From Chloroflexota bacterium (GTDB taxonomy: Bacteria > Chloroflexota > Anaerolineae > Ardenticatenales > JAADHH01), in the NCBI GenBank assembly GCA_013151955.1, contig JAADHH010000095.1, positions 3,195 to 67,194 on the forward strand: a stretch of 64,000 nucleotides of DNA, written 5' to 3'. The notes beneath the pieces were generated by a model. That model was given only the letters and a program-made list of their open reading frames with translations, had not been told where the DNA came from and ran no database searches. The position numbers were made by a program, and so were the translations under genes. This document shows positions 14,862 through 63,390 of the stretch, one piece after another. Numbering within the stretch: position 1 is the first letter of the stretch; every line of letters begins with the position of its first letter.

Positions 14862-16001
14862 TTACAAATTGCCTCGTGCGGCAGCGACCGCTTTTTGTGC
14901 GCCTTCGGCCAGGCTGTTTGCTGTGGCCATTTGGGCGCCGGCCAAGATGGCGCGGCCCTCTTCCTGGTTCGTGCCGACCAGGCGAGTGACCATCGGCACA
15001 TCGGTGTCGATCTGTTCAAAAGCCTCCAGGATGCCTTTGGCTACTTCATCACAGCGGGTGATACCGCCGAAGATGTTAAAGAGTACCGCTTTCACCTTTG
15101 GATCGGCCAGGATGATCCGCAAGGCCGCTGCTACTTTGTCGGCTTGTGCGCCACCGCCGATGTCCAGGAAGTTGGCAGGTTCAGCGCCATAGAGCTTAAT
15201 CACATCCATCGTAGCCATCGCCAATCCGGCACCGTTGACCATGCAGCCGATTTCGCCATCCAGGTCCACGTAGCTCAGGCCGTGGCGGCGCGCTTCCGTC
15301 TCTGCTTCTGTCTCCTCATCGGCGTCGCGCAAGGCGGCCAGGTCGGGATGGCGGAAGAGTGCGCTATCGTCAAGTACGACCTTGCCGTCTACGGCCAACA
15401 GCTTGTTGTCGCCGGTCACCACGAGGGGGTTGATCTCGGCCAGGGTTGCGTCGCTGCTCAGAAAACAATCGAAGAGTTGGTGGGCAATTGTGGTAAAGGG
15501 GCGCACCAGTTCTTTGGCCAGTCCGATGCCAAAGGCCAACTGGCGTGCCTGGTAATCTTGGAACCCTACGGCCGGGTCAATACGGACCGTGATGATCTTC
15601 TCGGGGGTGGTAGCGGCCACCTCCTCGATGTCCATGCCACCGGCTGCGGAGGCCATGAGGGCTACGCGACGGGCGGCGCGGTCCATCACAGCGCCGAGGT
15701 AAATTTCGTCTGCAATGTCAGCGGCCTGGTCGATCAAGACCTTGTGGACGGTCAGTCCTTTGATGTCCATGCCCAAGATTTGGTCTGCCACGCGCCCGGC
15801 CTCATCGGCAGATTTGGCCAGTTTCACCCCGCCGGCCTTGCCACGCCCTCCCACCAGAACTTGCGACTTGACCACAACCGTGCCGCCAAGGCGCGCAGCA
15901 ACCTCGCGTGCCTCGGCAGGTGTTGTCGCCACATCACCGTCCGGAATGGGAACGCCAAACTGGGCAAATAGACGTTTAGATTGGTATTCTTGTAACTTCA
16001 T
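14862..16001 (-). CDS. sucC: Succinyl-CoA synthetase subunit beta
   Basis: ORF 14862..16049 trimmed to ATG 16001 ([20 protein letters not shown]...). ATP-grasp N-terminus and '[10 protein letters not shown]' ligase-CoA motif. Confidence 0.95.
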
Positions 16002-16137
16002 GAATATGCCTCCGCGGATAGGTAAAAGAAATGTACGTTTTGTCGTCAAGCAGGTGAACTACGGCACAAATTATAACACAGGGATGCCGATTTGACAATA
16101 TCTTATCTTCCGGCGTGCTGCACAAACGCAGTGATGT

Positions 16138-16166
16138 TTGACGAAAAGGGAAAAGTACATTAGAAT
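16138..16166 (+). promoter_or_regulatory. Candidate promoter upstream of rplY (TTGACG-N17-TAGAAT)
   Basis: TTGACG at 16138-16143, a 17-nt spacer, and TAGAAT at 16161-16166. This would give a ~210-nt leader. Confidence 0.3.
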
Positions 16167-16381
16167 AGGGCAGATGTCAGTTTGATCATTACAATGGAGG
16201 TTGGCAAATGAAGGCCACCGTTCGTGAAGGTCTCCTTCCGAGCGCTTGTGTGCCACCAAAGACGAAAACCGTGCAGAGCGTTGCAACGTTGTACCATGCA
16301 ACCGCTCGAACGTTCAACGGCAATGACGTCTGGCCGTTATCTTCATCACGGACGAATTTTACAAGGAGTGATCGTACAATC

Positions 16382-17041
16382 ATGAGTGAACTTCAACTAG
16401 AAGCATCCAAGCGTACAGTGCTAGGCAAAAAAGTCCGTCAGTTACGACGGCAGGGAATTACCCCGGTTGTTCTATACGGCCCGGCTATTGATCCAAGGCC
16501 GCTCCAAGTGGACGAGCGTGCATTGGAAAGGACACTTGCTCTTTCTGGGAGAACGCAACTGATCGACCTGAAGCTCATGCCAGAAGGCCTTTCGTACGCC
16601 TCACTGGCACGCGAGATCCAAGTTGACACCCTCACCCAACAACTGCTTCATGTGGACTTTCAGGCCGTAGTCATGGACCAAGAAATCTCGGCATCCATAC
16701 CTTTGGTTTTTGACGGAGAACCACGCCCCATGATGCAGAATCTGGGCGTACTTGTCCAAAATCTGGACAAGGTGGAAGTGTCGGCCCTCCCCATGAATTT
16801 GCCTGCCGAAATTCGGGTGGACCTTACCAGTCTCGCGGAAGTCGGCCAAAAAATTTCTGTGGCAGATTTACCACTGGGGCCCACCGTTCGCCTGCTGTCC
16901 GACCCTGAAGAATGGGTGGCCCAGATCGTGCATGCCCGGGTCGCCGAAACCACCGAAGTGGTCGACGAGGAAGCGCTGGAATCTGTTGAAGCAGAAACAG
17001 AAGAGACGACGCAGCCAGGAGAAGAGGAGCCAGCAAGCTAA
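16382..17041 (+). CDS. rplY: 50S ribosomal protein L25 / general stress protein Ctc (long form)
   Basis: ORF 16208..17041 trimmed to ATG 16382 (MSELQLEASKRTVLGKKVRQLRRQGITPVVLYG...). Acidic C-terminal tail. Confidence 0.9.
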   Translation: MSELQLEASKRTVLGKKVRQLRRQGITPVVLYGPAIDPRPLQVDERALERTLALSGRTQLIDLKLMPEGLSYASLAREIQVDTLTQQLLHVDFQAVVMDQEISASIPLVFDGEPRPMMQNLGVLVQNLDKVEVSALPMNLPAEIRVDLTSLAEVGQKISVADLPLGPTVRLLSDPEEWVAQIVHARVAETTEVVDEEALESVEAETEETTQPGEEEPAS

Positions 17042-17050
17042 CTCCGACTG

Positions 17051-17206
17051 CCTAGCAGGCTGTCGGAGAGGTCTGTTTTCTTCTCTATTAGGTCACAGAT
17101 TCTCACAGAGAAACACAGATGTTCAGGCCAAATCATCGGAAAATCTGTGTTTATCCTGCAAATCTGTGTCCCATGATTCTTTCTTTTCTCCGACAAGCTG
17201 CTAGTT
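17051..17206 (+). repeat. Family C repeat, copy C1 (subtype a, with terminal inverted repeats)
   Basis: CTAGCAGGCTGTCGGAGAG (left) is inverted relative to CTCCGACAAGCTGCTAG (right). The core 'CACAGATTCTCACAGA...AAAATCTGTGTTTATCCTGCAAATCTGTGTCCCATGATTCTTTC' is shared with 31681-31757. The left end forms a hairpin plus T-rich run just after the rplY stop. Confidence 0.8.
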
Positions 17207-17538
17207 GACAAGCCAGAACCAAACAGGATAATCACAGATTGCGCTGAGTCTCGGACTTCTCTTGGTTTTTTACTCTGCGGCAGTCTCCCGCTTGGTTGCT
17301 GGTAAACATAAAAGGACCACGGATACCACGAAATGTTCGTTTTTTGGTCTGTGCAATCTGTGGTTGAAACACCCCATGTCTTCACAGCAACACGTAACAG
17401 GGGGCTGCCTAACCTGCGCAATGGGGAAGCCCCTATCTTGCATTGAAATCGGCACTGGTGCGCCGGGTGAAACTACGGGTCGAGCAGTATCGTCCGCTCA
17501 CCCGGCCACCAGAAACATGAATTGAGGAAGGGTGTCGC

Positions 17539-18600
17539 GTGTTCAGTCTGCTGAATTTCTTCTTGGGACTCTTTTCGCGGGATATTGCTATTGATCTTGG
17601 TACGGCGAACACGCTTGTCATGGTTCGCGGCCAAGGGGTCGTGATCAATGAGCCTTCGGTCGTGGCCATTGAATCCAGGACCAAGCGCGTGCTGGCAATT
17701 GGCAGTGAAGCCAAACAGATGGTGGGACGAACGCCGGCCAGCATCGTTGCCATCCGACCGCTTCGAGACGGGGTGATCTCCGATTTCGACGTGACGGAGC
17801 GGATGTTGCACTATTTCATCCGCAAAGTCCACGAAAAGGGCTTCTTGCCCATTGCCCGTCCACGGGTCATCGTGGGCATACCGGGCGGTGTTACCGAAGT
17901 AGAAAAACGAGCGGTCCGCGACGCCTGTATCAGCGCCGGCGCGCGCGAAGCACACCTCATCGAGCAGCCGATGGCCGCCGCCATTGGTGCTGGCTTGCCG
18001 GTTACCGAATCGCTGGGGAGCATGATCATCGACATTGGAGGGGGTACGACCGAAGTTGCCGTCACCGCGCTGGGCGGAATTGTGGTCAATCACTCCATTC
18101 GCGTAGCCGGCGACGAAATGGATGAAGAGATTGTCAACTATGCCCGTCAAAAATATAACCTTTTGATTGGCGAACGCATGGCCGAACGTACAAAGCTCGA
18201 AATTGGGTCTGCTTACCCCCTCGAAGAAGAAAAAACCATGACCCTTCGGGGACGAAACCTGATTACAGGATTGCCAGAAGCAATCAACGTCAGTAGTGTG
18301 GAAATACGCGAAGCACTTGCCGGACCAGTGGGCATGATCGTGGAAGCAACGCGAAGCACGCTGGACGAAACCCCACCTGAATTGATTGCAGACCTCATGG
18401 AACATGGTATTGCCTTGGCCGGCGGTGGCGCGCTGCTCTTGGGACTGGCTCAAAGATTGTCGGAGGAGACCAAGATGCACGTCTACGTCGCAGATGACCC
18501 CCTCACATCGGTGGTCAAGGGAGCGGGAATGGTGTTGGAAGAGCTGGACACCTTGCGCAAGGTGTTGGCTCCCACGCAGCGTGCCGGCATTCCATCTTGA
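17539..18600 (+). CDS. mreB: Rod-shape-determining actin homologue MreB
   Basis: 353 aa, GTG start. 'DIAIDLGTANTLV' and 'IIDIGGGTTEVAV' are actin-fold phosphate motifs. Confidence 0.97.
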   Translation: MFSLLNFFLGLFSRDIAIDLGTANTLVMVRGQGVVINEPSVVAIESRTKRVLAIGSEAKQMVGRTPASIVAIRPLRDGVISDFDVTERMLHYFIRKVHEKGFLPIARPRVIVGIPGGVTEVEKRAVRDACISAGAREAHLIEQPMAAAIGAGLPVTESLGSMIIDIGGGTTEVAVTALGGIVVNHSIRVAGDEMDEEIVNYARQKYNLLIGERMAERTKLEIGSAYPLEEEKTMTLRGRNLITGLPEAINVSSVEIREALAGPVGMIVEATRSTLDETPPELIADLMEHGIALAGGGALLLGLAQRLSEETKMHVYVADDPLTSVVKGAGMVLEELDTLRKVLAPTQRAGIPS

Positions 18601-18693
18601 CCTTTACCTGTGTCGTGACTGAATTATTCCTTTCCGCTCGTATTTTGCGGATAATTTATAGCTGATCGTTACTACTCAGGCCGGCTTTGGCAA

Positions 18694-18812
18694 GCAATGA
18701 ATTGCCCGCCTATAATTGCGAAACCTGTTGAAACAGGTTGCTGTTGTGCTAGAATAGTGCGTTTTAACGCACTTCGCAGTCTCAGTCTCAGGCGGCGAAT
18801 TCATTCGTCGCT
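18694..18812 (+). repeat. Family F repeat, copy F1 (MITE-like, ~120 bp)
   Basis: About 88% identical by eye to the reverse complement of 53364-53487. Termini GCAATGAATTGCCCGCC / GGCGGCGAATTCATTCGTCGC are inverted. Internal hairpins AAACCTGTTGAAACAGGTT and AGTGCGTTTTAACGCACT. Confidence 0.85.
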
Positions 18813-18849
18813 TTTCTTGGATAGCACCCGGCTGAAAGGGAAGTCACTG

Positions 18850-19701
18850 TTGACGATACGCTTACGCAGCAATGTGCTGACTTTTTTGTCCCTTTCTGCG
18901 GTTGCGCTCATAGCCCTGGCCCTGCATCAAAACCAGAAGCTGCAACCCGTAGAAGGTCTTGTCTTGCGCGCTTTCGTACCTGCGCAAACCATGTTTAGCC
19001 ACCTTGGACAGAGCATTCAGGATACACTCGATACCGCACATGAACTTAGATCGCTGCAAGCCGAAAACCAACGACTACGCCAGCAAACGAACGACCTGTT
19101 GCTGAGCAAGGTACACCTGGCCGAAGTAGAACAACAAAACCTGCAACTACGGGAACTGTTAGACTTCAAGCAAAAAAACCCGGATTACACGGTGCAGTTA
19201 GCCGAAGTGATTGGCCGCTCGACGCCGGCCACCGTGATTGGCCGTGATCCAAGCAATCTGGTGCAATCCCTGCTCCTGAACCAGGGCACCGCCGATGGCG
19301 TACGCCAAGGCCAGGCCGTTGTTACTGCCCGCGGCCTGGTGGGACGAATCACAGAGGCCGATTTGAACTGGTCGAAAGTCCTGCTGCTGACCGACAGCAA
19401 TAGCCGGGTGAACGGGTTGTTACAAAGCAGCCGTGCCACCGGAATCGTCGCCGGTAGACAAGGGAAACTCTATCTCCGCTATGTTCCGCAGGGCGAGGAG
19501 ATCGTTCCAAACGACATTGTGGTTACTTCCGGCCTCGGCGGTTATCTCCCCAAAGGATTGGTCATTGGCCAGGTGCAAAACGTCCAACAGCGAGACGTAG
19601 ACATGTTCCAGGAAGCAGAAATTCGCTCCTTCGTCGATTTCTCCCGCCTGGAGTTGGTCATCGTCTTGCAAGATTTCACGCCGCTTCAGGTGCAGCCATG
19701 A
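18850..19701 (+). CDS. mreC: Rod-shape-determining protein MreC
   Basis: ORF 18697..19701. The first ~51 codons lie in repeat F1, so the start was moved to TTG 18850 (LTIRLRSNVLTFLSLSAVALIAL; start uncertain). Coiled-coil 'LRSLQAENQRLRQQ' and 'VVTSGLGGYLPKGLVIGQV'. Confidence 0.85.
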   Translation: MTIRLRSNVLTFLSLSAVALIALALHQNQKLQPVEGLVLRAFVPAQTMFSHLGQSIQDTLDTAHELRSLQAENQRLRQQTNDLLLSKVHLAEVEQQNLQLRELLDFKQKNPDYTVQLAEVIGRSTPATVIGRDPSNLVQSLLLNQGTADGVRQGQAVVTARGLVGRITEADLNWSKVLLLTDSNSRVNGLLQSSRATGIVAGRQGKLYLRYVPQGEEIVPNDIVVTSGLGGYLPKGLVIGQVQNVQQRDVDMFQEAEIRSFVDFSRLELVIVLQDFTPLQVQP

Positions 19702-20210
19702 CATCAGAAACCAATCTGTACCTGCCCCTTTTCGTATTGCCATTCGTTGCCTTTTTGCAATCTACAATTTTGCCACACCTGGAAGTGGTGGGGCTACGAC
19801 TCGATCTGGTTCTCCTGACCGTCATTTCCTGGAGTCTGATTCGGGGTATGCGAGAAGGAATGATTTGGGGTTTCATCGGCGGAGCGTTGATTGACTTGTT
19901 GTCTGCTGCCCCGTTCGGCATCCATACCTTCGCCATGCTCCTATGCGGCGTGATCAGTGGCGTGGGCGGCCGGAACGTCTTTCGACAGAACCTGCTCTTG
20001 TCTTTGGGGATTACTGCGGTGGCTTCTGTAGCATACTATGTTGTCTCGATGCTGTTACTTCAAATTTCAGGGTGGTCCGTATCTTGGCTGGCTACTTTTG
20101 GCTCGGTGGTCATTCCCATTGCGCTACTCAACACACTCAGCATACCGTTGATCCACCGCCTTGTCCAGAATCTACAGCGTTTTACCGGACAAAAAGAGCT
20201 AAGTTGGTGA
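19698..20210 (+). CDS. mreD: Rod-shape-determining protein MreD
   Basis: 170-aa multi-TM protein. 4-nt overlap with mreC; position in the mreBCD cluster. Confidence 0.85.
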   Translation: MTSETNLYLPLFVLPFVAFLQSTILPHLEVVGLRLDLVLLTVISWSLIRGMREGMIWGFIGGALIDLLSAAPFGIHTFAMLLCGVISGVGGRNVFRQNLLLSLGITAVASVAYYVVSMLLLQISGWSVSWLATFGSVVIPIALLNTLSIPLIHRLVQNLQRFTGQKELSW

Positions 20211-40526: not shown

Positions 40527-40655
40527 GTATCTTCTCGATAATTCGGGGTGAGCAGAACGTCATGCCCCCCTAACCCCCCAACTTTGGGGGGAATGTGCTC
40601 CCCCAGAATTGGGGGCCGGGGGGCGTTCGCGTTCCCCAAGTTATCGAGAAGATAC
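40527..40655 (+). mobile_element. MITE, shared-TIR superfamily, core type A (copy A2) with perfect 8-bp TSD
   Basis: GTATCTTCTCGATAATTCGGGG ... CCCCAAGTTATCGAGAAGATAC. Flanked by GATTGAAG at 40519-26 and 40656-63. Inserted between the CoA-transferase stop and the thiolase RBS. Confidence 0.92.
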
Positions 40656-50335: not shown

Positions 50336-52027
50336 TCAATCAGCCCGCACGGTGGGCAAAAAGAGAACCTGATTGGAATCTCTGGGTGCATAATAGAGTT
50401 CGATGCCGTGCAACACCGGTGTAGTAGAAGAGAGTGCCGTAGAAAAATTCAAACGATAGTTCACCTGGCCGGTCGTTTGGATGGGCACTACGTAGGTGAT
50501 TCGCGACGTTTGTGTCAGTGCGTTGGTTGCCTGGCCAGCGGCGACCAGCGGATGCGACGAAATGTCTGTGTCGACCCACGGTTGGCTGGAGTCTGCCTGA
50601 TAGGCAAAGGTAATTGTGGCAGCCGTCGTATCGGTTATGGCCGTTTCCAGAGCGAACCGCTGCAGGTAGCTGTTCTCCGGTAGTTGCATCGTGCCGGTGT
50701 AGATCCCGTGTGGCATGTATTGCGCGGCCAGGCCACGTGTGGGGGCACTGTACACGCTTGCCTGAGGGAAAGCGTGGGTGTTCGCCCCACCGACCACGAA
50801 GATGTGGTCCGCCAGCCAGGTCCCTGTGTGCGCGTAGCGCGGGGCCGGCAAGGGATAGGTCGTTCGCCAGACGGGGTCACCGGCCTGCTCACGATATAGG
50901 TAATCGGGTGCGGAAGGATCCAGCGCGACGCTGATCACTTCGTCCCGGTGGCCGCTGGTCAAGGTGGGGCCTACCCCGCCGGCCAAAAGAATTTGAGCGT
51001 TGACTTGAACTGTTGCTGCCTCCAAAAAGGATTCTGGGAGTGGCAAGGAAGCCGTATGCCAATTGGAAAGCGACCCATCCGGCTGGATATCGGCGTAGAA
51101 CATGCTGGCATTGCCCTGCCCAGACGAGACGTCGTCTCCGCCCATGACGAAAAGTGTAGCATTGCCATCAGCGTGACGATAGAGCACGGACATAGCGTGT
51201 GCCAGCACTTTTGGGAGCGCCGGCGCGGTCTGGAATGCCGTGATGTGTCCGGCTCCATCTATGTCTGCCCAATGCACTTCATTGTGAGTTTGGGCGCTCC
51301 CTCCGATCACTGTCTGTCCCCCCAGGAAGTACAGGTGTTGCCCGTACAACGCTCCCATGGCGTAATGCGCGGGATATGGCAAGCGTACGGTCTCTGTGAT
51401 CCAGGAACTGATGGTGCCATCTGGCTGCATGGTCGCGCGGAAGATGGTATCCTGCGAGGGGAACTCCAGGCCCGGTCCCTGTCGTGTAAATCCTCCAAGA
51501 ATGTAAAGGTACGTTTCCGTCGAGTCCAGCAAGGCTATGTGGCCGGCCAGGGCAACAGGCATCGCGTTGGCCAACGGTTGCCACGGATTCAATTGAATCG
51601 CGGCCCCATTTTCGGTTGATGATACCACAGAAGTGGCATAGATGGTGTTGGTCGGATTGATTCCGTCTGCGCCTATGCCTCCGGTCACATACAGCCGATT
51701 TCCACGGGCCACGGTTGCCATCTGGCTACGGGGGGCAGGGAGAGATTCTGCGGCCTGCCACGGTTCGGTCACCCCGATAGGTAGCAGTTGCAACGCGCCA
51801 CCGGCGAGATCAATCACTTGGACGTGGCTCGTCTGCCCAGCTTCAAAGTCCGCGACCGTGGTGTGGGGAATCGAGAAAGCGGTCCAGCTTGCTCCCAAGG
51901 GGAGTAGCCCCTGGCGTGCAGTTGCAGATATGAGTATGAGTAGAGCGCCCAAGACAAATAGAGGCCATCGTTTCCCCGCCCGGCGATATCTCATGATCGG
52001 TTGTAACACATTTCTTTCTTGGCGCAT
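50336..52027 (-). CDS. Membrane-anchored Kelch-type beta-propeller protein (6 blades) with C-terminal beta-sandwich region
   Basis: 563 aa (alternative start ATG 51994). TM 'WPLFVLGALLILISA'. Blades marked by RLYVTGGIG, YLYILGGF, HLYFLGGQ, TLFVMGGDD, ILLAGGVG and IFVVGGAN. Confidence 0.75.
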   Translation of the reverse strand: MRQERNVLQPIMRYRRAGKRWPLFVLGALLILISATARQGLLPLGASWTAFSIPHTTVADFEAGQTSHVQVIDLAGGALQLLPIGVTEPWQAAESLPAPRSQMATVARGNRLYVTGGIGADGINPTNTIYATSVVSSTENGAAIQLNPWQPLANAMPVALAGHIALLDSTETYLYILGGFTRQGPGLEFPSQDTIFRATMQPDGTISSWITETVRLPYPAHYAMGALYGQHLYFLGGQTVIGGSAQTHNEVHWADIDGAGHITAFQTAPALPKVLAHAMSVLYRHADGNATLFVMGGDDVSSGQGNASMFYADIQPDGSLSNWHTASLPLPESFLEAATVQVNAQILLAGGVGPTLTSGHRDEVISVALDPSAPDYLYREQAGDPVWRTTYPLPAPRYAHTGTWLADHIFVVGGANTHAFPQASVYSAPTRGLAAQYMPHGIYTGTMQLPENSYLQRFALETAITDTTAATITFAYQADSSQPWVDTDISSHPLVAAGQATNALTQTSRITYVVPIQTTGQVNYRLNFSTALSSTTPVLHGIELYYAPRDSNQVLFLPTVRAD

Positions 52028-54035: not shown

Positions 54036-57000
54036 CTACGGGCAGGGTCTGGTCCCAGTGATCTGCGGGGCCAGGTCCACAACGTGGGTCTGGTCGTCAG
54101 AACCCGTGAATGAGACTTGAGCCGTACCCGCCGAACTGGGTGGCGGATTGCTCACAGTCGCCGAAAGCGTGATCGTCACCGAATCGTCAACCTTCATGTT
54201 GCCCAGGTTCCAGGTCATCGTCTGGCCATTGACGCTGGCCGGCGACGGATTGGCCGAGCCGTTCACATATTGCAAGTCAGCCGGCAACACCTCGGTAACT
54301 ACCACATTCTTCCAAATGATCTGTGTGATCTGTGTGCCAATATCCTGGAAAATTCCGGCTAGATCGCTGGAGTTCGGCGCTTCATAGTAATGCGCACTAT
54401 CCGAAGCCATACTTCGCAGTACATTGCGGGCCAGGTTCTCCGTAGCGCTGCCGTGTTGCTGCCCGACATCGCCCAGGTTGAGACCAATCGTGAATACCGT
54501 GGTCCCCTGGTTCTTGGCGGAAGCCGCTTGGTTGATGGCGTCATTCGTGCAGTTGGTGGGCGAAGAGGGCCAAGTGCTGCAACCCTGGGAGCTGCCATGC
54601 CGGCGGTTGGCCACACCATCGCTCAGCACGACGATGATCGGTATGGCATTGCTTCGCGCCCGGCTGCTGTTTAGCTCTTGTTGAGCCTTGTAGACGGCAT
54701 CGCCGATGTTGGTGTAACCATTGGCGTTGAAGTTGTCGATGGCGTTTTTCACGCTATTGAAATTGTTCGTCAGACTGTGGTCCTTGCTGGCTGTCGTAGA
54801 GTAGGAAACGAGCCCTACTTTGTCCGTGCTGGAATCGAGCTGATCGATCAGCAGTTTGGCCGCACTCTTGGCATCGCTGATGGGCTGCGGTGGGTTGCCA
54901 CCCGCGTCGTCCATGGAACCGGAGCGATCGAGCACGATCATGACATCCAGCTTGGTATGTTGCGTGAACGGTGTCCCCGTAGGTTGGACCCCTATGGCAA
55001 TGTCGGCAATCTCGCACTGCCCAGAGGTCGTCGGCGTAGCCGTTACCGTTGGTGTGGGCGTGGCTGTGGACGTGGGCGTGCTGGTAGCCCCTCCCTGCGG
55101 CGTACTGGTCGCCGCCGGCGGCGCGCACGGCCCCGGTTGCACGTTGACTGTGTTCTGACCAACGCGGCTGGGCGATGCGTGGATGTAGGGGATCGTCACA
55201 TGGTCGAACCCGGCTTGCCCAAAGGCGGCCTTGTCCACGTCCACGGTGTAAATCACTTCGTAGAGCCAGTTCGGATAACTCGGGTTGGGCGTGTAGTTGG
55301 CATCTGTCGCCGGCGAATCGGTGGTCATGTTGGAGTATCCGGCGCTATTCAGATTGTAGTCCAGCGATGTAGAAGCGCTCAGCACCCAGGCTGCATTCCC
55401 CACATTCACGCTGCCGTCACCGCCCGTCACCCCTTGGGAGGCATAGCCGGAAGGCGCGCTGCCATCCACATCCAGATAGTCTACGGAAATATCCATCACC
55501 TCACTGCCGTTGCCATCGTAGAGCAGGAACTGCGCCCGGTCGCTCTTCCAGAGGTCCTGGAACGTGTGTTGTTTGAGCCGGCCATTCTTCCAGTACTCAG
55601 ATGTGTTGGCTCCGTAGGTGTTGTCCACGAATTCCTTATCCAATACCAGGCGGATGCGGATGTACCCGCCCATGTCTGTGGCGTACAGTTGGGTGTAGAA
55701 GTATTCGGGTCCCTGGCCCGGGTAGGCCGGGTTTGGCGACACATAGCAGACTTCCTGGCTGCCGCCGGGGGTCGGCGTGGCGGTGGGCGAACCGGAAGGG
55801 GTGGTCGTACTCGTCGGCGTCGATTCAGGCCCCTGACTGCCGCCGCTGCCACTGGTGGTGATGCTGCAACCATTTTCAAAGTAGAAGGTCACCACAAAGT
55901 CGCCCATGTTGAAATAGGAAGCCAGGTCGGATGGACTATGGTCGAAGTCCGCCTCCCAGGTTTTGCCGTGGTTCTTCTTGATTTCCTTATCACCGGAGAA
56001 GTGCGAGACGTCGGTGGGGGACGAATGCCCATCGCCACCCCAGATGCGGTGGCCGCCCAACTTGAACCAGTCGATCTTCATGTGCGGGTAATGATCGCTC
56101 TCCGGCCAGTAGAAGACAATGCGGTCGAGTTCTGCATCCTCGTCCGTGCCATTCGTGATTGTGGTTTGCACGTGGTCCTTGTTGCTGGGCACGGTGACCA
56201 GTTGGCTGGCCGTCAGACCGCTGCACTGCGACGAGGTCGTCGGTACCGGCGTGGGGCTAGGCTGTGCCGTAGACTCTGGCGTGGGGCTAGGCCCAAACTG
56301 GCTGCTGCCCGATGCGGAAACGGCGCACCCACCCTCGAAATAAATGGTCACCTGGTAGCTGGAGAGGTTGAAGACGTCGGTCAAGTGTTCGGGGCCGTCC
56401 TTGATCTTGGCTTTCCAGGTCTTGTGGTGGCCGTGCTCAATCTCACGGTGATCATCATGTCCAGACAGGGTGACATCGGTGGGCGGCGAGGCGTCATCTC
56501 CCTCCCATATTTCGTGGTCATCCAGCTTGAACTTGTCCACCTTCATGTTGGGGTAATCGCCGCTGGTCGGCCAGACAAAGTAGATCCGGGTAATCTTGGC
56601 GTTATCGTGACTGGCATTGTTCGTAAGGGTAACCCGCAGTTCGTCATTATCGTGCAAGGTTATGTCGCTGGCGGCGATGCTCTGGCACTGCGCGGGAGTG
56701 GTCGGTGTCGGGCTGCTGGCAATTGTTGTGGCGGTGGGAGACGAGCGGCCGCAATCCGAGACCTGGATGGTAACAGAATCTTGCTCACCGGTCGCCGGTA
56801 CGACAGCGTACACACGGTAGCGTCCGGTGCCCTGGTTGCCTCCGTTCATGTCGTCGGGGACAACGGTAACATTGCGATGGGCATTGAAGTCATCCAGGTG
56901 CCAGTTCCGAAACTGTTCCGGCCCCGGTTGTTGTTCGTAATAGAAAGTATACGACGTGCCCACCGGAGAGACTTGCACATAGTTGCTCAGATTGAACGTG

Positions 57001-57560
57001 TCCCAAATACACACGCTCAGGTTTTCCGTCGCGAAGGAAACATCTCCCCCCGGATTGGGTGTCGTGGTGGGCGTGAAGGTCGGTGTGGGCAAGGGCGCAA
57101 AGGTAGGAGGACTATCCTGCCATGGAGCCGATTCGCCTCCCGATCCAACAATGGTGCGTGCAGAGACAAAGCTGACCGTCATCGATGGTAGGATACGGTT
57201 GATAAACGGGGTCATCGGATGGTAAGAATAGCTGGGAGTTACCACGATGCGGTAGTCTCCCGGTATCGTTTGCGAAAGGTCTACGTTGTGACCAAAAACG
57301 CCGTCATCATAGGCGATGGCAACGTGTACATCATCGGCGCGAATGGTTACAATTTTGGAGCGTACTGCCTGAATGATCCCCAAGGTATCGCCCGGATTGG
57401 CCGCACCGTAGCGGGAACCTTCCCTTGCCGCATTCGACAGATTGCTCCAAAGCAACATAGCATGGCCCATGTCCACAATGCCTGAAATGATGATGAGCAA
57501 TATCGGCAGTACAAGCGCAAATTCTAGTAAGCTCTGCCCTTTTTGGGTTCTTCTCTTCAT
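54036..57560 (-). CDS. Giant TadE-N-terminal / vWA-domain protein (1174 aa) with internal tandem modules; putative pilus-associated adhesin
   Basis: SD GGAGGG upstream. N-terminus 'MKRRTQKGQSLLEFALVLPILLIIISGIVDMGHAMLLWSNLSNAAREGSRYG' (TadE). vWA MIDAS 'VLDRSGSMDD...YTNIG...VVLSDGVANRR' (residues ~869-1080). Thr/Pro linkers. Two homologous ~127-aa modules at residues 291-417 and 445-570. Confidence 0.85.
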   Translation of the reverse strand: MKRRTQKGQSLLEFALVLPILLIIISGIVDMGHAMLLWSNLSNAAREGSRYGAANPGDTLGIIQAVRSKIVTIRADDVHVAIAYDDGVFGHNVDLSQTIPGDYRIVVTPSYSYHPMTPFINRILPSMTVSFVSARTIVGSGGESAPWQDSPPTFAPLPTPTFTPTTTPNPGGDVSFATENLSVCIWDTFNLSNYVQVSPVGTSYTFYYEQQPGPEQFRNWHLDDFNAHRNVTVVPDDMNGGNQGTGRYRVYAVVPATGEQDSVTIQVSDCGRSSPTATTIASSPTPTTPAQCQSIAASDITLHDNDELRVTLTNNASHDNAKITRIYFVWPTSGDYPNMKVDKFKLDDHEIWEGDDASPPTDVTLSGHDDHREIEHGHHKTWKAKIKDGPEHLTDVFNLSSYQVTIYFEGGCAVSASGSSQFGPSPTPESTAQPSPTPVPTTSSQCSGLTASQLVTVPSNKDHVQTTITNGTDEDAELDRIVFYWPESDHYPHMKIDWFKLGGHRIWGGDGHSSPTDVSHFSGDKEIKKNHGKTWEADFDHSPSDLASYFNMGDFVVTFYFENGCSITTSGSGGSQGPESTPTSTTTPSGSPTATPTPGGSQEVCYVSPNPAYPGQGPEYFYTQLYATDMGGYIRIRLVLDKEFVDNTYGANTSEYWKNGRLKQHTFQDLWKSDRAQFLLYDGNGSEVMDISVDYLDVDGSAPSGYASQGVTGGDGSVNVGNAAWVLSASTSLDYNLNSAGYSNMTTDSPATDANYTPNPSYPNWLYEVIYTVDVDKAAFGQAGFDHVTIPYIHASPSRVGQNTVNVQPGPCAPPAATSTPQGGATSTPTSTATPTPTVTATPTTSGQCEIADIAIGVQPTGTPFTQHTKLDVMIVLDRSGSMDDAGGNPPQPISDAKSAAKLLIDQLDSSTDKVGLVSYSTTASKDHSLTNNFNSVKNAIDNFNANGYTNIGDAVYKAQQELNSSRARSNAIPIIVVLSDGVANRRHGSSQGCSTWPSSPTNCTNDAINQAASAKNQGTTVFTIGLNLGDVGQQHGSATENLARNVLRSMASDSAHYYEAPNSSDLAGIFQDIGTQITQIIWKNVVVTEVLPADLQYVNGSANPSPASVNGQTMTWNLGNMKVDDSVTITLSATVSNPPPSSAGTAQVSFTGSDDQTHVVDLAPQITGTRPCP

Positions 57561-57717: not shown

Positions 57718-57842
57718 GTATCTTCTCAATAATTCGGGGTGAGTGGACCGTCGTGCCTCCCTACCCCCCAAAAACTTTTGGGGGAGTGTGCTCCCCCAGA
57801 ATTGGGGCCCCGGGGGCGTTTCCCAGGTTATTGAGAAGATAC
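57718..57842 (+). mobile_element. MITE, shared-TIR superfamily, core type A (copy A3)
   Basis: GTATCTTCTCAATAATTCGGGG ... CCCAGGTTATTGAGAAGATAC. Flanks CAAATGAG / CAAATGGA match at 6 of 8. Confidence 0.85.
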
Positions 57843-57898: not shown

Positions 57899-59863
57899 TC
57901 AAAAGTCAAATTCGACATATTCCGTCTCGCGCAGGGCCGGCTCTGCAATGCCCAAAATGGACAGCAATTCGGCAATCATCTCTGTCTTGCGGATGGCATC
58001 TTTTCGGGACCACGTGCGACTCTTGATTTCCAGAAAAGGGGCACCCTTCGCCGGACGGATCATGGTGTCCATGTTGATCACAAAGGCTGTGCCCCGGAAG
58101 GCGATGTGCAAACGCTCACGTCGTTTTTGCACCTCGCGTGACTCCGCGGGTTGAAAATACTCCTGGTAGAAGCGGAGAGACCGGTCCGCGATGGCCACGT
58201 AGCGCGCACGGGACAAAACCACGGCATGTTCGTAGGCCACCTTTTCGGCAGGCTCCATCAAGGTGAGGAAATAGAGCGGATGTACCTCTCCGGCCGTTCC
58301 GCTGACAAAATCTTCCCGGTAGCGGATGCGGCCCTCTTCCGGACCAAAGAGCAAGTAGGTGTCGTACTGCTCGCGCTGACTGCCCCGGCCAATGACTACA
58401 TCGGGGTGACTGAAGGCCTGGTGCAGTTGCAAAGGCTCTGCCAACTCCGCCTTGACTTGCACCTCGAAGGTCTCCTGGTGTTCCACCGTGCTGATGGCCA
58501 CCAGTTTGCTCAACAGGTCTCCCTCGCGCTCCGCCAAGAAGGCGTAGATTTGTTCAGACTGTTGTTGGGCTTCTTTTGCGATAGCGGGCAGGTCAACGGT
58601 GAGGAGTTGACCATCACGCAGCAGGAACTGCCCATTCACGATGACGTGGCGCACATCATTGCTCTTGGCGCTGTACACCAGTTGCGAATACACGGTCTCT
58701 GTGATGGGCTGATACATCGGCGTCAGATGGGCCGCCGCATGATCTACGGTGACCATGTCCGCGCGTTTGCCCGATTCCAGGGAGCCGATCAAATGATCCA
58801 GGTGAATGGCTCGCGCACTTTCGATGGTGGCCAGGGCCAGGGCCTGTTTGGCCGGCAAGGCCAGGGGGTCATGGTTCACCCCTTTGGGCAACAAGGCCGC
58901 GAGACGCATCTCCTCAAACATGTCCTGATCGTTGTTGCTCGCTGCGCCATCTGTGCCGATGCCCACCGCGATCCCTTTGGCCAACATCTCTGCAACGGGA
59001 GCCACGCCGCTGGCCAGCTTCAGGTTGCTGGTTGGATTGTGGGCCACGCCCACACCGTAATCGTGCAGGATTTCCAGTTCCCCATGCCGGGGATGGACGC
59101 AGTGTGCAGCGATGGTTTTGGCCTCGAACAGCCCCACGGAAGCCCCCCAGGCGATGGGAGGGAGGTCGTGCTCCGACTGGGTCTCCTCCACTTCCCGGCG
59201 CGTCTCCGACAGATGGATGATCAAGGGGACATCATAGCGGAGGGCCAGTTGGCGAGTCAGTTGCAGGACTTCCGCGGTGCAGCTATAGGGTGCATGAGGG
59301 GCAACAGCCGGCACGATGAGGGGATGGTCTTTCCATTCCTTGATCATCTCTTCGCAGTAGGCCAGGCTCTCATCGTAACTCTCCGCGTCGGGGGTGGACC
59401 AATTCATGATGGTCTCGCCGCAAATCGCCCTCATGCCGGCCTCGGCAGCCGCTTGGGCCACGGCTCCCTCAAAGTAGTACATGTCCACAAAGCAGGTTGT
59501 GCCGCCACGTATCATTTCGGCGCAGGACAGCAGCGTGCCCAGGCGACAGAACGCTTCGCAAACGAAGGCCCGTTCGACCGGCAGCATGTACCCGTAGAGC
59601 CACACATCCAGTTGGCGGTCATCAGCCAGTCCCCGGAGCAAACTCATCGGCACGTGGGTGTGTGCGTTGATCAGGCCGGGGATGATGGTCTGCCCGGCAC
59701 AATCTACCACGGTGTCGGCATGATGGGCCGCAGCGATTTCCCCGGCCGGCCCTACGGCAACGATGTTTTCTGCCAGGATCGCAATTGCCCCGTTTTCGAA
59801 TACGTCTCTGGCGGGATTCATCGTCACGACCGTGCCGCCGGTCAAAATTATGTCTACGTTCAT
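57899..59863 (-). CDS. MtaD-like amidohydrolase (5'-methylthioadenosine/S-adenosylhomocysteine/adenosine-type deaminase) fused to a C-terminal CYTH-like domain
   Basis: ORF to 59881 (TTG); ATG 59863 has SD GAGGAG. 'GLINAHTHVPMSLLRG' is the metal site. The C-terminal 193 aa (57902-58480), 'FEVQVKAEL...QYDTYL...RIRYRED...KRRERLHIAFRGTAFVINMDTM...PFLEIKSRT', matches the CYTH topology motifs. Confidence 0.85.
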   Translation of the reverse strand: MNVDIILTGGTVVTMNPARDVFENGAIAILAENIVAVGPAGEIAAAHHADTVVDCAGQTIIPGLINAHTHVPMSLLRGLADDRQLDVWLYGYMLPVERAFVCEAFCRLGTLLSCAEMIRGGTTCFVDMYYFEGAVAQAAAEAGMRAICGETIMNWSTPDAESYDESLAYCEEMIKEWKDHPLIVPAVAPHAPYSCTAEVLQLTRQLALRYDVPLIIHLSETRREVEETQSEHDLPPIAWGASVGLFEAKTIAAHCVHPRHGELEILHDYGVGVAHNPTSNLKLASGVAPVAEMLAKGIAVGIGTDGAASNNDQDMFEEMRLAALLPKGVNHDPLALPAKQALALATIESARAIHLDHLIGSLESGKRADMVTVDHAAAHLTPMYQPITETVYSQLVYSAKSNDVRHVIVNGQFLLRDGQLLTVDLPAIAKEAQQQSEQIYAFLAEREGDLLSKLVAISTVEHQETFEVQVKAELAEPLQLHQAFSHPDVVIGRGSQREQYDTYLLFGPEEGRIRYREDFVSGTAGEVHPLYFLTLMEPAEKVAYEHAVVLSRARYVAIADRSLRFYQEYFQPAESREVQKRRERLHIAFRGTAFVINMDTMIRPAKGAPFLEIKSRTWSRKDAIRKTEMIAELLSILGIAEPALRETEYVEFDF

Positions 59864-59885
59864 ACCTGTCTCCTCAATCAATTTT

Positions 59886-59945
59886 AGAAGTTTTCTCCCA
59901 GAAGTTCAACTTCTCCCAGAAGTTGAACTTCTGAACTTCTGGGGG
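59886..59945. repeat. Cluster of AGAAGTTSAACTTCT palindromes
   Basis: AGAAGTTTTCTCCCAGAAGTTCAACTTCTCCCAGAAGTTGAACTTCTGAACTTCTGG. The same palindrome is found at 2926-2940, 10389-10421 and within MITE D1. Confidence 0.85.
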
Positions 59946-61700: not shown

Positions 61701-61767
61701 CCCCCCTACCCCCCCAATCCTGGGGGGAACCATCCGACTCCCCCCAGAATTGGGGGGCCGGGGGGGC
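61701..61767 (+). repeat. TIR-less fragment of the type-A MITE core
   Basis: CCCCCCTACCCCCCCAATCCTGGGGGGAACCATCCGACTCCCCCCAGAATTGGGGGGCCGGGGGGGC parallels the A1-A3 cores. A family C left-end fragment sits at 61556-61595. Confidence 0.7.
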
Positions 61768-63309: not shown

Positions 63310-63390
63310 GTATCTTCTCAATATTTTGGGGGAATGTGCTCCCCCCAGAATTGAGGCCCGGGGGGCGCTCCCCAAGTTATTGAGATGATA
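63310..63390 (+). mobile_element. MITE, shared-TIR superfamily, truncated type-A core (copy A5)
   Basis: GTATCTTCTCAATATTTTGGGGGAATGTGCTCCCCCCAGAATTGAGGCCCGGGGGGCGCTCCCCAAGTTATTGAGATGATAG. The right TIR is degenerate, and there is no TSD. Confidence 0.75.

Follow-up and report, generated by a model that had tools for sequence, protein, structure and literature searches.

A phylum-wide deaminase-CYTH fusion of Chloroflexota with a remodelled triphosphate tunnel

We analysed a 64,000-nucleotide stretch of DNA from a Chloroflexota bacterium (assembly GCA_013151955.1, contig JAADHH010000095.1, positions 3,195 to 67,194 of the forward strand), called here the window, whose numbering is used throughout. 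One gene of the window encodes an amidohydrolase-type deaminase fused to a CYTH domain, the β-barrel of triphosphate tunnel metalloenzymes (TTMs). The gene lies on the minus strand, as do all of its features given below. It occupies an uninterrupted open reading frame (ORF) at 57899..59881, which the ORF list translates into 660 amino acids (aa) counted from a TTG. An ATG at 59863, with a Shine-Dalgarno-like GAGGAG motif a few bases 5' of it, gives a product of 654 aa encoded by 57902-59863. With its stop codon (57899-57901), the whole gene spans 57899..59863. The product is 100% identical to GenBank NOZ06218.1, whose record is titled 'MAG: amidohydrolase [Chloroflexi bacterium]' (MAG, metagenome-assembled genome), and the identical 654-aa protein is also present in independent assemblies. 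Just upstream of the gene, a weak sigma-70-like promoter match is found at 59881..59909 (9 of 12 positions, a consensus match only). A terminator-like GC hairpin followed by a T-run is located at 57779..57807, about 90 nt past the stop codon, and contains a repeated element, 'CCCCAATTCTGGGGG'.

The protein is composed of three parts. The N-terminal part, aa 1-434 (58562..59863), is an amidohydrolase domain of the 5'-methylthioadenosine (MTA)/S-adenosylhomocysteine (SAH)/5'-deoxyadenosine deaminase type (cog0402-like), as seen in Pfam, PDB and Foldseek searches. Residues 435-458 (58490..58561) form a linker, delimited from the secondary structure of the models and from conservation. The C-terminal part, aa 459-654 (57902..58489), is a remodelled CYTH/TTM β-barrel, assigned from Foldseek, from profile alignment with hhalign and from Pfam PF01928 matches in relatives. 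In the AlphaFold models the linker is a helical hairpin, in which a long helix (425-447) comes to its end and is followed by a short one (450-457). The linker helices are conserved in the family, and residues F442 and K453 are invariant. The full-length model has a mean predicted local distance difference test score (pLDDT) of 91.0 and a predicted TM-score (pTM) of 0.85. The latter value suggests, as soft evidence, a fixed packing of the two domains. Among the Foldseek matches of the full-length model, no solved structure covers both domains.

The preliminary description of this gene, made from the sequence alone, had read the first ~435 aa as an MTA/SAH/adenosine-type deaminase, and the searches bear this out. 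The Pfam family Amidohydro_1 (PF01979) covers aa 59-412 with E = 3.4e-72. The nearest solved sequence is the MTA/SAH deaminase Cv1032 (4F0R, E = 3.8e-90); 4DZH, 3LNP, PA3170 (4DYK/4GBD) and Tm0936 (E = 1.6e-65) are also close. The full-length model superimposes on 4DZH, 4F0R and 4GBD with Foldseek TM-scores of 0.95-0.97 and root mean square deviations (rmsd) of 1.4-1.6 Å. Conservation was evaluated on 193 full-length fusions, whose identity to the query ranges from 38 to 100% (median 55%). Residues H68 and H70 of the metal-binding HxH motif (59654..59662, within NAHTHVP), H217 and E220 of the HxxE motif (59204..59215; a metal ligand and the catalytic glutamate), the downstream H254, and D305, the aspartate of GTD (58949-58951), are invariant in all of them. 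The same holds for E97 of a P-x-E motif (59573..59575) aligned to P-T-E of 4F0R. By analogy with Tm0936, E97 is presumably the ribose-hydroxyl-binding glutamate of the MTA/SAH deaminase group. Because the fold, the nearest relatives and these invariant residues agree, the deaminase domain is intact. Its exact substrate would be of the MTA, SAH, 5'-deoxyadenosine or adenosine type. The MTA/SAH/5'-deoxyadenosine deaminases Tm0936, PA3170, Cv1032 and DadD are alike to it in fold and in the HxH, HxxE, histidine and aspartate residues. However, the characterised enzymes are single-domain proteins of about 405-470 aa, whereas the fusion carries an extra 220-aa C-terminal extension. A 5-residue insertion at about aa 385-389 (about 58697-58711) is conserved in the fused deaminases and absent from 4F0R, 4DZH and 3LNP. 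It reads '…P-I-T-E-T-V-Y-S-Q…' here, with a family consensus NVYSQLVY, and might contact the CYTH domain.

The preliminary description had also proposed a CYTH domain at the C-terminus. The protein's own copy escapes direct recognition. Its last 220 aa have zero Pfam or NCBIfam matches, even at E <= 10, and PDB sequence and profile searches with the C-terminal half returned no CYTH chain, only spurious matches to MutS and haemagglutinin. The assignment therefore needed homologues, profile alignment and a fold search. We collected 184 homologues of the C-terminal 220 aa, many of which have precomputed PF01928 matches beside amidohydrolase families. Individually, 16 of 27 non-redundant family members match Pfam CYTH (PF01928; best E = 7.3e-9). 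A canonical CYTH gene, met by chance beside a relative at locus L081 (PF01928 E = 1.4e-26; EVEVK…EME), aligns with the family in hhalign over 162 columns with a probability of 92% and E = 6.7e-7. An AlphaFold model of the C-terminal domain (pLDDT 88.7, pTM 0.81) shows two helices, then a β-barrel, then a long helix. Foldseek comparison of this model to the PDB gave 46 matches at E <= 1e-3, mostly TTM-fold structures. The best one is SaTTM (7NS9; E = 2.2e-7, probability 1.0), and the leading matches are all CYTH/TTM enzymes, including the class IV adenylate cyclase YpAC-IV (3N0Z/2FJT), AtTTM1 (7Z67, in sixth position), AtTTM3 (5A68) and thiamine triphosphatase (ThTPase). Cet1/Pct1 and the TTM-like Med18/20 come further down the list. 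By transitive homology and predicted fold, the C-terminal half is thus a CYTH/TTM domain. Compared with 1.84 billion representative proteins, the family profile reached only 321 clusters at E <= 1e-3, mostly fragments of the same fusion, and did not extend to generic CYTH proteins. With so few clusters reached, this is a tight and well-separated CYTH subfamily.

The fusion is real and phylum-wide in Chloroflexota. With each GTDB species represented by a single genome, at least 582 species-representative genomes, drawn from all classes of the phylum, were found to carry the domain. Carriers belong to Anaerolineae, Chloroflexia (Roseiflexus, Chloroflexus, Chloroploca, Herpetosiphonaceae), Ardenticatenia, Caldilineae and Thermoflexus, and the cultured genera Roseiflexus, Chloroflexus and Thermoflexus have the fusion gene. 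The closest locus among the matches listed (L001, from an Ardenticatenales MAG) is 92% identical over the domain. At 79 of 80 fetched loci, tblastn gave a single in-frame match over all 654 residues, where the contig allows, and the 193 full-length homologues align end to end. The fusion is ancient and obligate. Three short proteins that looked like stand-alone CYTH domains (P0097, P0098 and P0242) begin with the last amidohydrolase strand ('…NG.FLLRDR.LLTLD') and are therefore truncated gene calls. Fusion loci were also found in MAGs labelled Blastocatellaceae, Deltaproteobacteria and Klebsiella (L034, L071 and L077, respectively). The contigs concerned probably belong to Chloroflexota and were mis-binned or mislabelled, horizontal transfer being the alternative. 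A literature search found no paper on a deaminase- or amidohydrolase-CYTH fusion, in line with the preliminary description, which knew of no characterised example; yet the gene is not rare. Some pipelines already name members 'CYTH domain-containing protein' or deaminase/adenylate cyclase class IV. For instance, P0178, P0181 and P0219 bear the JGI name 'cytosine/adenosine deaminase-related metal-dependent hydrolase/adenylate cyclase class IV'.

Residues of the tunnel were mapped in two steps, from the family to the canonical CYTH protein of L081, then from the latter to SaTTM (E = 5e-19) and YpAC-IV (E = 2e-8). The motifs quoted in the preliminary description are all in place in the protein: NAHTHVP (HxH at aa 68-70), FEVQVK (466-471), QYDTYL (499-504), RIRYRED (512-518), KRRER...INMD (580-599) and PFLEIKSRT (609-617). 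The ExExK signature reads E467-V-Q469-V-K471 (58451..58465), aligned to the canonical EVEVK. E467 and K471 are kept in 193/193 fusions, E467 corresponding to SaTTM E5 and K471 to the lysine of the motif. Q469, found in 192/193, replaces SaTTM E7. The DxY motif (D501-T-Y503, 58355..58363) is kept and invariant in the alignment; in SaTTM it places a water molecule, as deduced from D38 and Y40 mutants (SaTTM paper). In R514-Y-R516-E517-D518 (58310..58324), aligned to the canonical RVR, the phosphate-binding RxR pair is kept and followed by an invariant E-D. The lysine of 'TYKG' (TxK) is lost, position 536 being T or M. On strand β5, R552 keeps the arginine of 'TRxExE', and the first glutamate of that motif is replaced by R554 (arginine in 182/193). 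K580-R-R582-E-R584 (58112..58126), aligned to KKR of the canonical protein and to 'EKIR' of SaTTM, combines the KxR pair with a third, family-specific arginine, all invariant. D599 keeps the aspartate of 'LD'. On strand β8, the canonical EME becomes E612-I-K614-S-R616-T-W618 (58010..58030). E612, equivalent to SaTTM E135, is kept in 193/193. K614, lysine in 188/193 and glutamine in 5, replaces the metal-2 glutamate E137. The family-specific R616 and W618 are found in 193/193. Finally, the invariant Y649 (57917..57919) aligns with the tyrosine of the C-terminal plug helix, hhalign pairing EY with SY of the canonical protein. R584, N597, R616 and W618 are therefore additions specific to the family, and the conserved basic residues gained are R554, R584, K614 and R616. 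In total, the basic tunnel set comprises K471, R514, R516, R552, R554, K580, R582, R584, K614 and R616.

Hence, the degenerate ExExK and ExE motifs announced in the preliminary description do exist, and the remodelling goes further than it had claimed, with the TxK lysine and two β5 glutamates replaced and four basic residues gained. Since Q469 and K614 occur in 192/193 and 188/193 sequences spanning 38-100% identity, and since both halves of the protein are equally conserved (16.3% of positions at >=98% conservation in the CYTH half vs 17.1% in the deaminase half), these substitutions are fixed and not the result of decay. E7 bridges the two metals of SaTTM: it binds metal 1 together with E135, and the water-activating metal 2 together with E5 and E137 (SaTTM paper). 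The second β8 glutamate is required for catalysis in TTMs and ThTPases, and the first one is conserved throughout the CYTH family (Vogt 2021; SaTTM paper). With the bridging glutamate changed to glutamine and the metal-2 glutamate to lysine, the two-metal hydrolytic site therefore cannot form. Mapped onto SaTTM, the changes remove the water-activating metal-2 site and weaken the metal-1 site. Between β5 and β6, a helix at aa 561-571 (SLRFYQEYFQP, 58151-58183) is almost invariant in the family, with the consensus L-R-F-Y-x-E-Y-F-x-P and conserved residues R564, F565, Y566, E568, Y569, F570 and P572. Its counterpart in canonical CYTH proteins is variable. This helix might lie at a domain interface or contribute to a ligand site.

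Canonical TTMs (SaTTM 7NS9, NeuTTM, CthTTM, AtTTM3 and the N-domain of YgiF) share with the fusion the eight-stranded tunnel, the lysine of ExExK, RxR, KxR, DxY, the first β8 glutamate and the plug tyrosine. They differ from it by a complete ExExK, the β5 and β8 ExE motifs, two metals and hydrolysis of tripolyphosphate (PPPi) or nucleoside triphosphates, whereas the fusion has Q469, R554 and K614, adds R584, R616 and W618, and is always fused. Fusion partners of CYTH domains listed in reviews are HD, exopolyphosphatase, nucleotide kinase and CHAD only. Class IV adenylate cyclases (AC-IV; CyaB / YpAC-IV, 2FJT/3N0Z) have the same fold and also deviate at the second β8 position. However, they need HFxxxxExExK, a small residue where RxR has its first arginine, and an alanine at the second β8 position (Vogt 2021). 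Our protein has no HF (…VEHQETFEVQVK; …EHQETFEVQVK), keeps both R514 and R516, and has K614 instead of alanine in β8; we rejected this function. The JGI label 'adenylate cyclase class IV' is thus unsupported, given that neither the HF motif nor the ExA signature is present. We likewise rejected a thiamine triphosphatase. The hallmark of that enzyme is the aromatic residue of W/YxRxR, which stacks on the thiazole ring (Vogt 2021), and the residue two positions before R514 is an arginine (G-R-I-R-Y-R; family GR[IL]RYR).

The closest parallel is offered by the plant proteins AtTTM1 and AtTTM2. There, a helical hairpin links a nucleoside-kinase domain to a TTM that has glutamines for the ExExK glutamates, shows no metal, and binds an anion in its conserved basic tunnel. 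This TTM was called 'catalytically incompetent' and proposed to gate or regulate the kinase (Pesquera et al. 2022). The Chloroflexota fusion follows the same plan, with a nucleoside-metabolising enzyme at the N-terminus, a helical hairpin, and a degenerate C-terminal TTM (7Z67 for the plant protein) showing a glutamate-to-glutamine change in ExExK and a conserved basic tunnel and plug tyrosine. The partners are unrelated, a P-loop uridine/cytidine-kinase-like domain in plants and an amidohydrolase deaminase here. AtTTM1/2 are eukaryotic proteins, tail-anchored to mitochondria, whereas the fusion is bacterial. Moreover, both ExExK glutamates are glutamines in AtTTM1/2, whereas the fusion has changed only the second and adds the charge reversal of the β8 glutamate to lysine. 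No specific sequence relationship between the fusion barrel and AtTTM1/2 was detected. The resemblance looks like a convergence of design, and the two would form a functional class, not a homologous family.

The same barrel variant was found in another context. Two divergent metagenomic relatives, P0376 and P0378, are specifically matched by the family profile (E ~1e-17) and carry FEIQ[MV]K … VE[LM]K[SA]NAW, that is ExQxK…ExK[SA]xxW, behind two winged-helix domains (wHTH) of the Lrs14/Sta1-like archaeal type. They differ from the fusion by this DNA-binding N-terminal partner and by their transporter context, and are rare and uncharacterised. A search for further wHTH-CYTH relatives returned none. 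The wHTH-wHTH-CYTH genes (608-1729 of L081, 590-1762 of L082, also in L083-L085) are always directly upstream of a gene for a fused ABC ATPase-permease. In L082-L085, and with the P0376 type, an SsuA/NMT1-type binding-protein gene comes after the ABC gene; in L081, the canonical CYTH gene is divergently adjacent to the wHTH-CYTH gene. The transporter could be typed only as SsuA/TauA/NMT1-like and gives no clue to a ligand. The wHTH-wHTH-CYTH proteins may represent a new family of transcription factors with a CYTH sensor. Their one-component-regulator layout supports a ligand-sensing role for the ExQxK/ExK barrel.

We favour, with a probability of about 55%, the view that the gene encodes an MtaD-type deaminase with an obligate CYTH module that binds a (poly)phosphate without hydrolysing it and that regulates or assists the deaminase. 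The N-terminal domain would be a functional Zn/Fe-dependent deaminase converting adenosine-type by-products of S-adenosylmethionine (SAM) chemistry to inosine analogues. The tunnel would bind a negatively charged metabolite containing a (poly)phosphate and leave it uncleaved, Lys614 and the extra arginines replacing the metals in charge neutralisation. Once occupied, it could act through the rigidly packed helical-hairpin linker on access to the deaminase, on its activity or on its oligomeric state. Salvage of SAM by-products and purines would in this way be coupled to a signal of phosphate or nucleotide status. That the barrel binds rather than hydrolyses, as the preliminary description had suggested, is the best-supported option judging from the replaced SaTTM E7 and E137 positions and from the AtTTM1/2 precedent.

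A bolder version of this proposal goes further. The ExQxK/ExK barrel may define a distinct, previously undescribed, metal-free 'sensor-CYTH' clade for (poly)phosphates or nucleotides, deployed in at least two ways, on the SAM-by-product deaminase of Chloroflexota, where it would be an obligate allosteric domain, and on archaeal-type one-component transcription factors controlling an ABC importer, where it would bind the ligand. Its ligand could be PPPi, polyphosphate (polyP), phosphoribosyl pyrophosphate (PRPP), guanosine penta- or tetraphosphate ((p)ppGpp) or a thiamine phosphate, and this ligand would be a new regulator of methionine/purine salvage. This version is tentative and less likely than not.

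Several points weigh against the regulatory reading. Ligand binding and regulation are deduced wholly from residues and analogy. The invariance of E467, D501/Y503 and the metal-1 glutamate E612 makes a one-metal site with some chemistry conceivable, and AtTTM1/2 still display a low pyrophosphatase activity in vitro (Pesquera et al. 2022). The tunnel-facing residues, as well as the position of the tunnel relative to the deaminase site, were derived from strand periodicity and alignment. On the deaminase side, the domain falls below every NCBIfam equivalog cut-off, and the curated models assign no substrate: the top match, PRK09045, scores 467 bits for a cut-off of 540, the 5'-deoxyadenosine deaminase model 366 bits for 522, and MtaD 322 bits for 779. 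Finally, clustering of the ORFs at 80 loci gave no phylum-wide neighbour that would point to the ligand.

The retained acidic residues lead to the main competing explanation, a bifunctional enzyme. The CYTH domain would still be catalytic, through one metal held by E467, Q469 and E612 or through Lys614, and its pyrophosphatase, triphosphatase or phosphotransfer reaction would be coupled to the deaminase, for instance by removing PPPi or pyrophosphate from adenosyl-transfer chemistry. The invariance of E467, D501/Y503, E612 (the central metal-1 ligand) and E517/D518 has a strictness typical of active sites. AtTTM1/2 have neither ExExK nor ExE and nevertheless have measurable pyrophosphatase activity, and class IV adenylate cyclases are active with an alanine at the second β8 position. 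However, the bridging glutamate and the metal-2 glutamate (E7 and E137 in SaTTM) are both replaced in essentially all members, metal 2 is the water-activating one, and the second β8 glutamate is required for TTM/ThTPase catalysis. In addition, a β5 glutamate has become an arginine, the TxK lysine is lost, and DNA-binding domains carry the same barrel variant in P0376 and P0378, an arrangement typical of sensors and not of enzymes. We consider a catalytic barrel unlikely. A composite site appears more doubtful. Here, a phosphorylated substrate containing adenosine (for example ATP/dATP, Ap(n)A, an adenylylated compound or adenosine thiamine triphosphate) would be gripped in the tunnel by its (tri)phosphate tail and offer its adenine to the amidohydrolase site, which would make the protein a nucleotide deaminase instead of a nucleoside deaminase. 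The obligate fusion, the rigid packing suggested by the pTM of 0.85 and the full phosphate-binding ladder of the tunnel would fit such an arrangement, and the insertion at about aa 385-389 could add to a shared surface. Against this, the deaminase superimposes closely on nucleoside-specific MTA deaminases (rmsd 1.4-1.6 Å) and keeps the P-x-E glutamate. The lack of a defence-system match and the phylum-wide, single-copy spread also argue against a RADAR-like ATP deaminase.

We give still less credit to a purely structural appendage, that is, a barrel serving oligomerisation, stability or localisation and binding no small ligand. It is true that Med18/Med20, TTM-like folds with purely structural roles, are among the fold matches. 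However, the invariant residues cluster at alternating, charged positions of the β-strands (E/Q/K, RxR, KxRxR, NxD, ExKxR) that align with the tunnel lining of canonical TTMs, a pattern that a scaffold would not be expected to show. The fusion also retains DxY and the plug tyrosine. As to an artefact in which a frameshift or an assembly error would have merged two adjacent genes, a check that the preliminary description had asked for at the junction, the only observation in its favour is the locus with two frames (L048, one of 80). The ORF is uninterrupted, the same protein occurs in independent assemblies, 79/80 loci are in frame, and the full-length homologues align from end to end with conserved linker helices. 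An artefact is refuted for practical purposes.

The genomic context of the fusion gene is one of housekeeping and Tad pilus genes. In the window, a FapA-like gene and gltX are upstream and a Tad pilus cluster is downstream; no SAM, MTA or purine gene was found elsewhere in the window. Other loci show recurrent neighbours, two of which, the CoaE-like and purine-nucleoside-phosphorylase-like genes, are not in this window. A CoaE-like P-loop kinase gene lies directly downstream on the same strand at about 11 of 80 loci (L021 and about 10 others), a purine-nucleoside-phosphorylase (PNP)-like gene lies within 1-3 genes at 6/80 (L023 and 5 others), and sigma-54-type response regulators appear at 13/80. 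A role as an anti-phage defence deaminase, such as one resembling RdrB of RADAR, was considered and rejected: the fusion protein has no match among PADLOC defence-system models, and its context consists of housekeeping and Tad pilus genes.

Other features of the window were observed along the way. The GC-rich 'CCCCAATTCTGGGGG' element occurs at 2620-2659, 40576-40614, 57793-57807, 61712-61755 and 63342-63356, often in inverted pairs with a spacing of about 25 nt, with 8 matches in the window versus 0.3 expected by chance. The deaminase-CYTH gene and gltX both have copies directly past their stop codons, and these copies form terminator-like hairpins. The element looks like a REP-like (repetitive extragenic palindromic) or terminator repeat family. 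In the Tad pilus cluster, 54036-57560 (minus strand) encodes a 1174-aa protein that has a TadE signal at its N-terminus, a VWA domain at its C-terminus and, in addition, a DUF11 domain. It has two internal repeats of about 150 aa, both preceded by a linker rich in Pro and Thr ('…RIYFVWPTSGDYPNMKVDKFKLDDHEIWEGDD…' and '…RIVFYWPESDHYPHMKIDWFKLGGHRIWGGDG…'). The cluster also includes a Kelch-repeat protein (50336-52027). The region 16001-20000 has a GC content of 0.527-0.535, compared with 0.56-0.63 elsewhere in the window.

The deaminase-CYTH fusion is a real, widespread and uncharacterised architecture built on a known design. To our knowledge, CYTH/TTM domains have been treated almost wholly as enzymes (triphosphatases, cyclases, polyP polymerase), the plant kinase-TTM pair being the sole well-described regulatory case. 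If the regulatory reading is correct, the fusion would be a second, independent regulatory TTM, and the triphosphate tunnel would be a recurrent sensor scaffold. The case is fixed in at least 582 species across the phylum, with the remodelled tunnel conserved as tightly as an active site. Our results correct the automated labels 'adenylate cyclase class IV' and plain 'amidohydrolase', and they yield a residue-level hypothesis open to simple binding and kinetic assays. Chloroflexota are abundant in sediments, hot springs and wastewater. A regulatory CYTH module would give a handle on how these bacteria control the disposal of MTA, SAH and 5'-deoxyadenosine.

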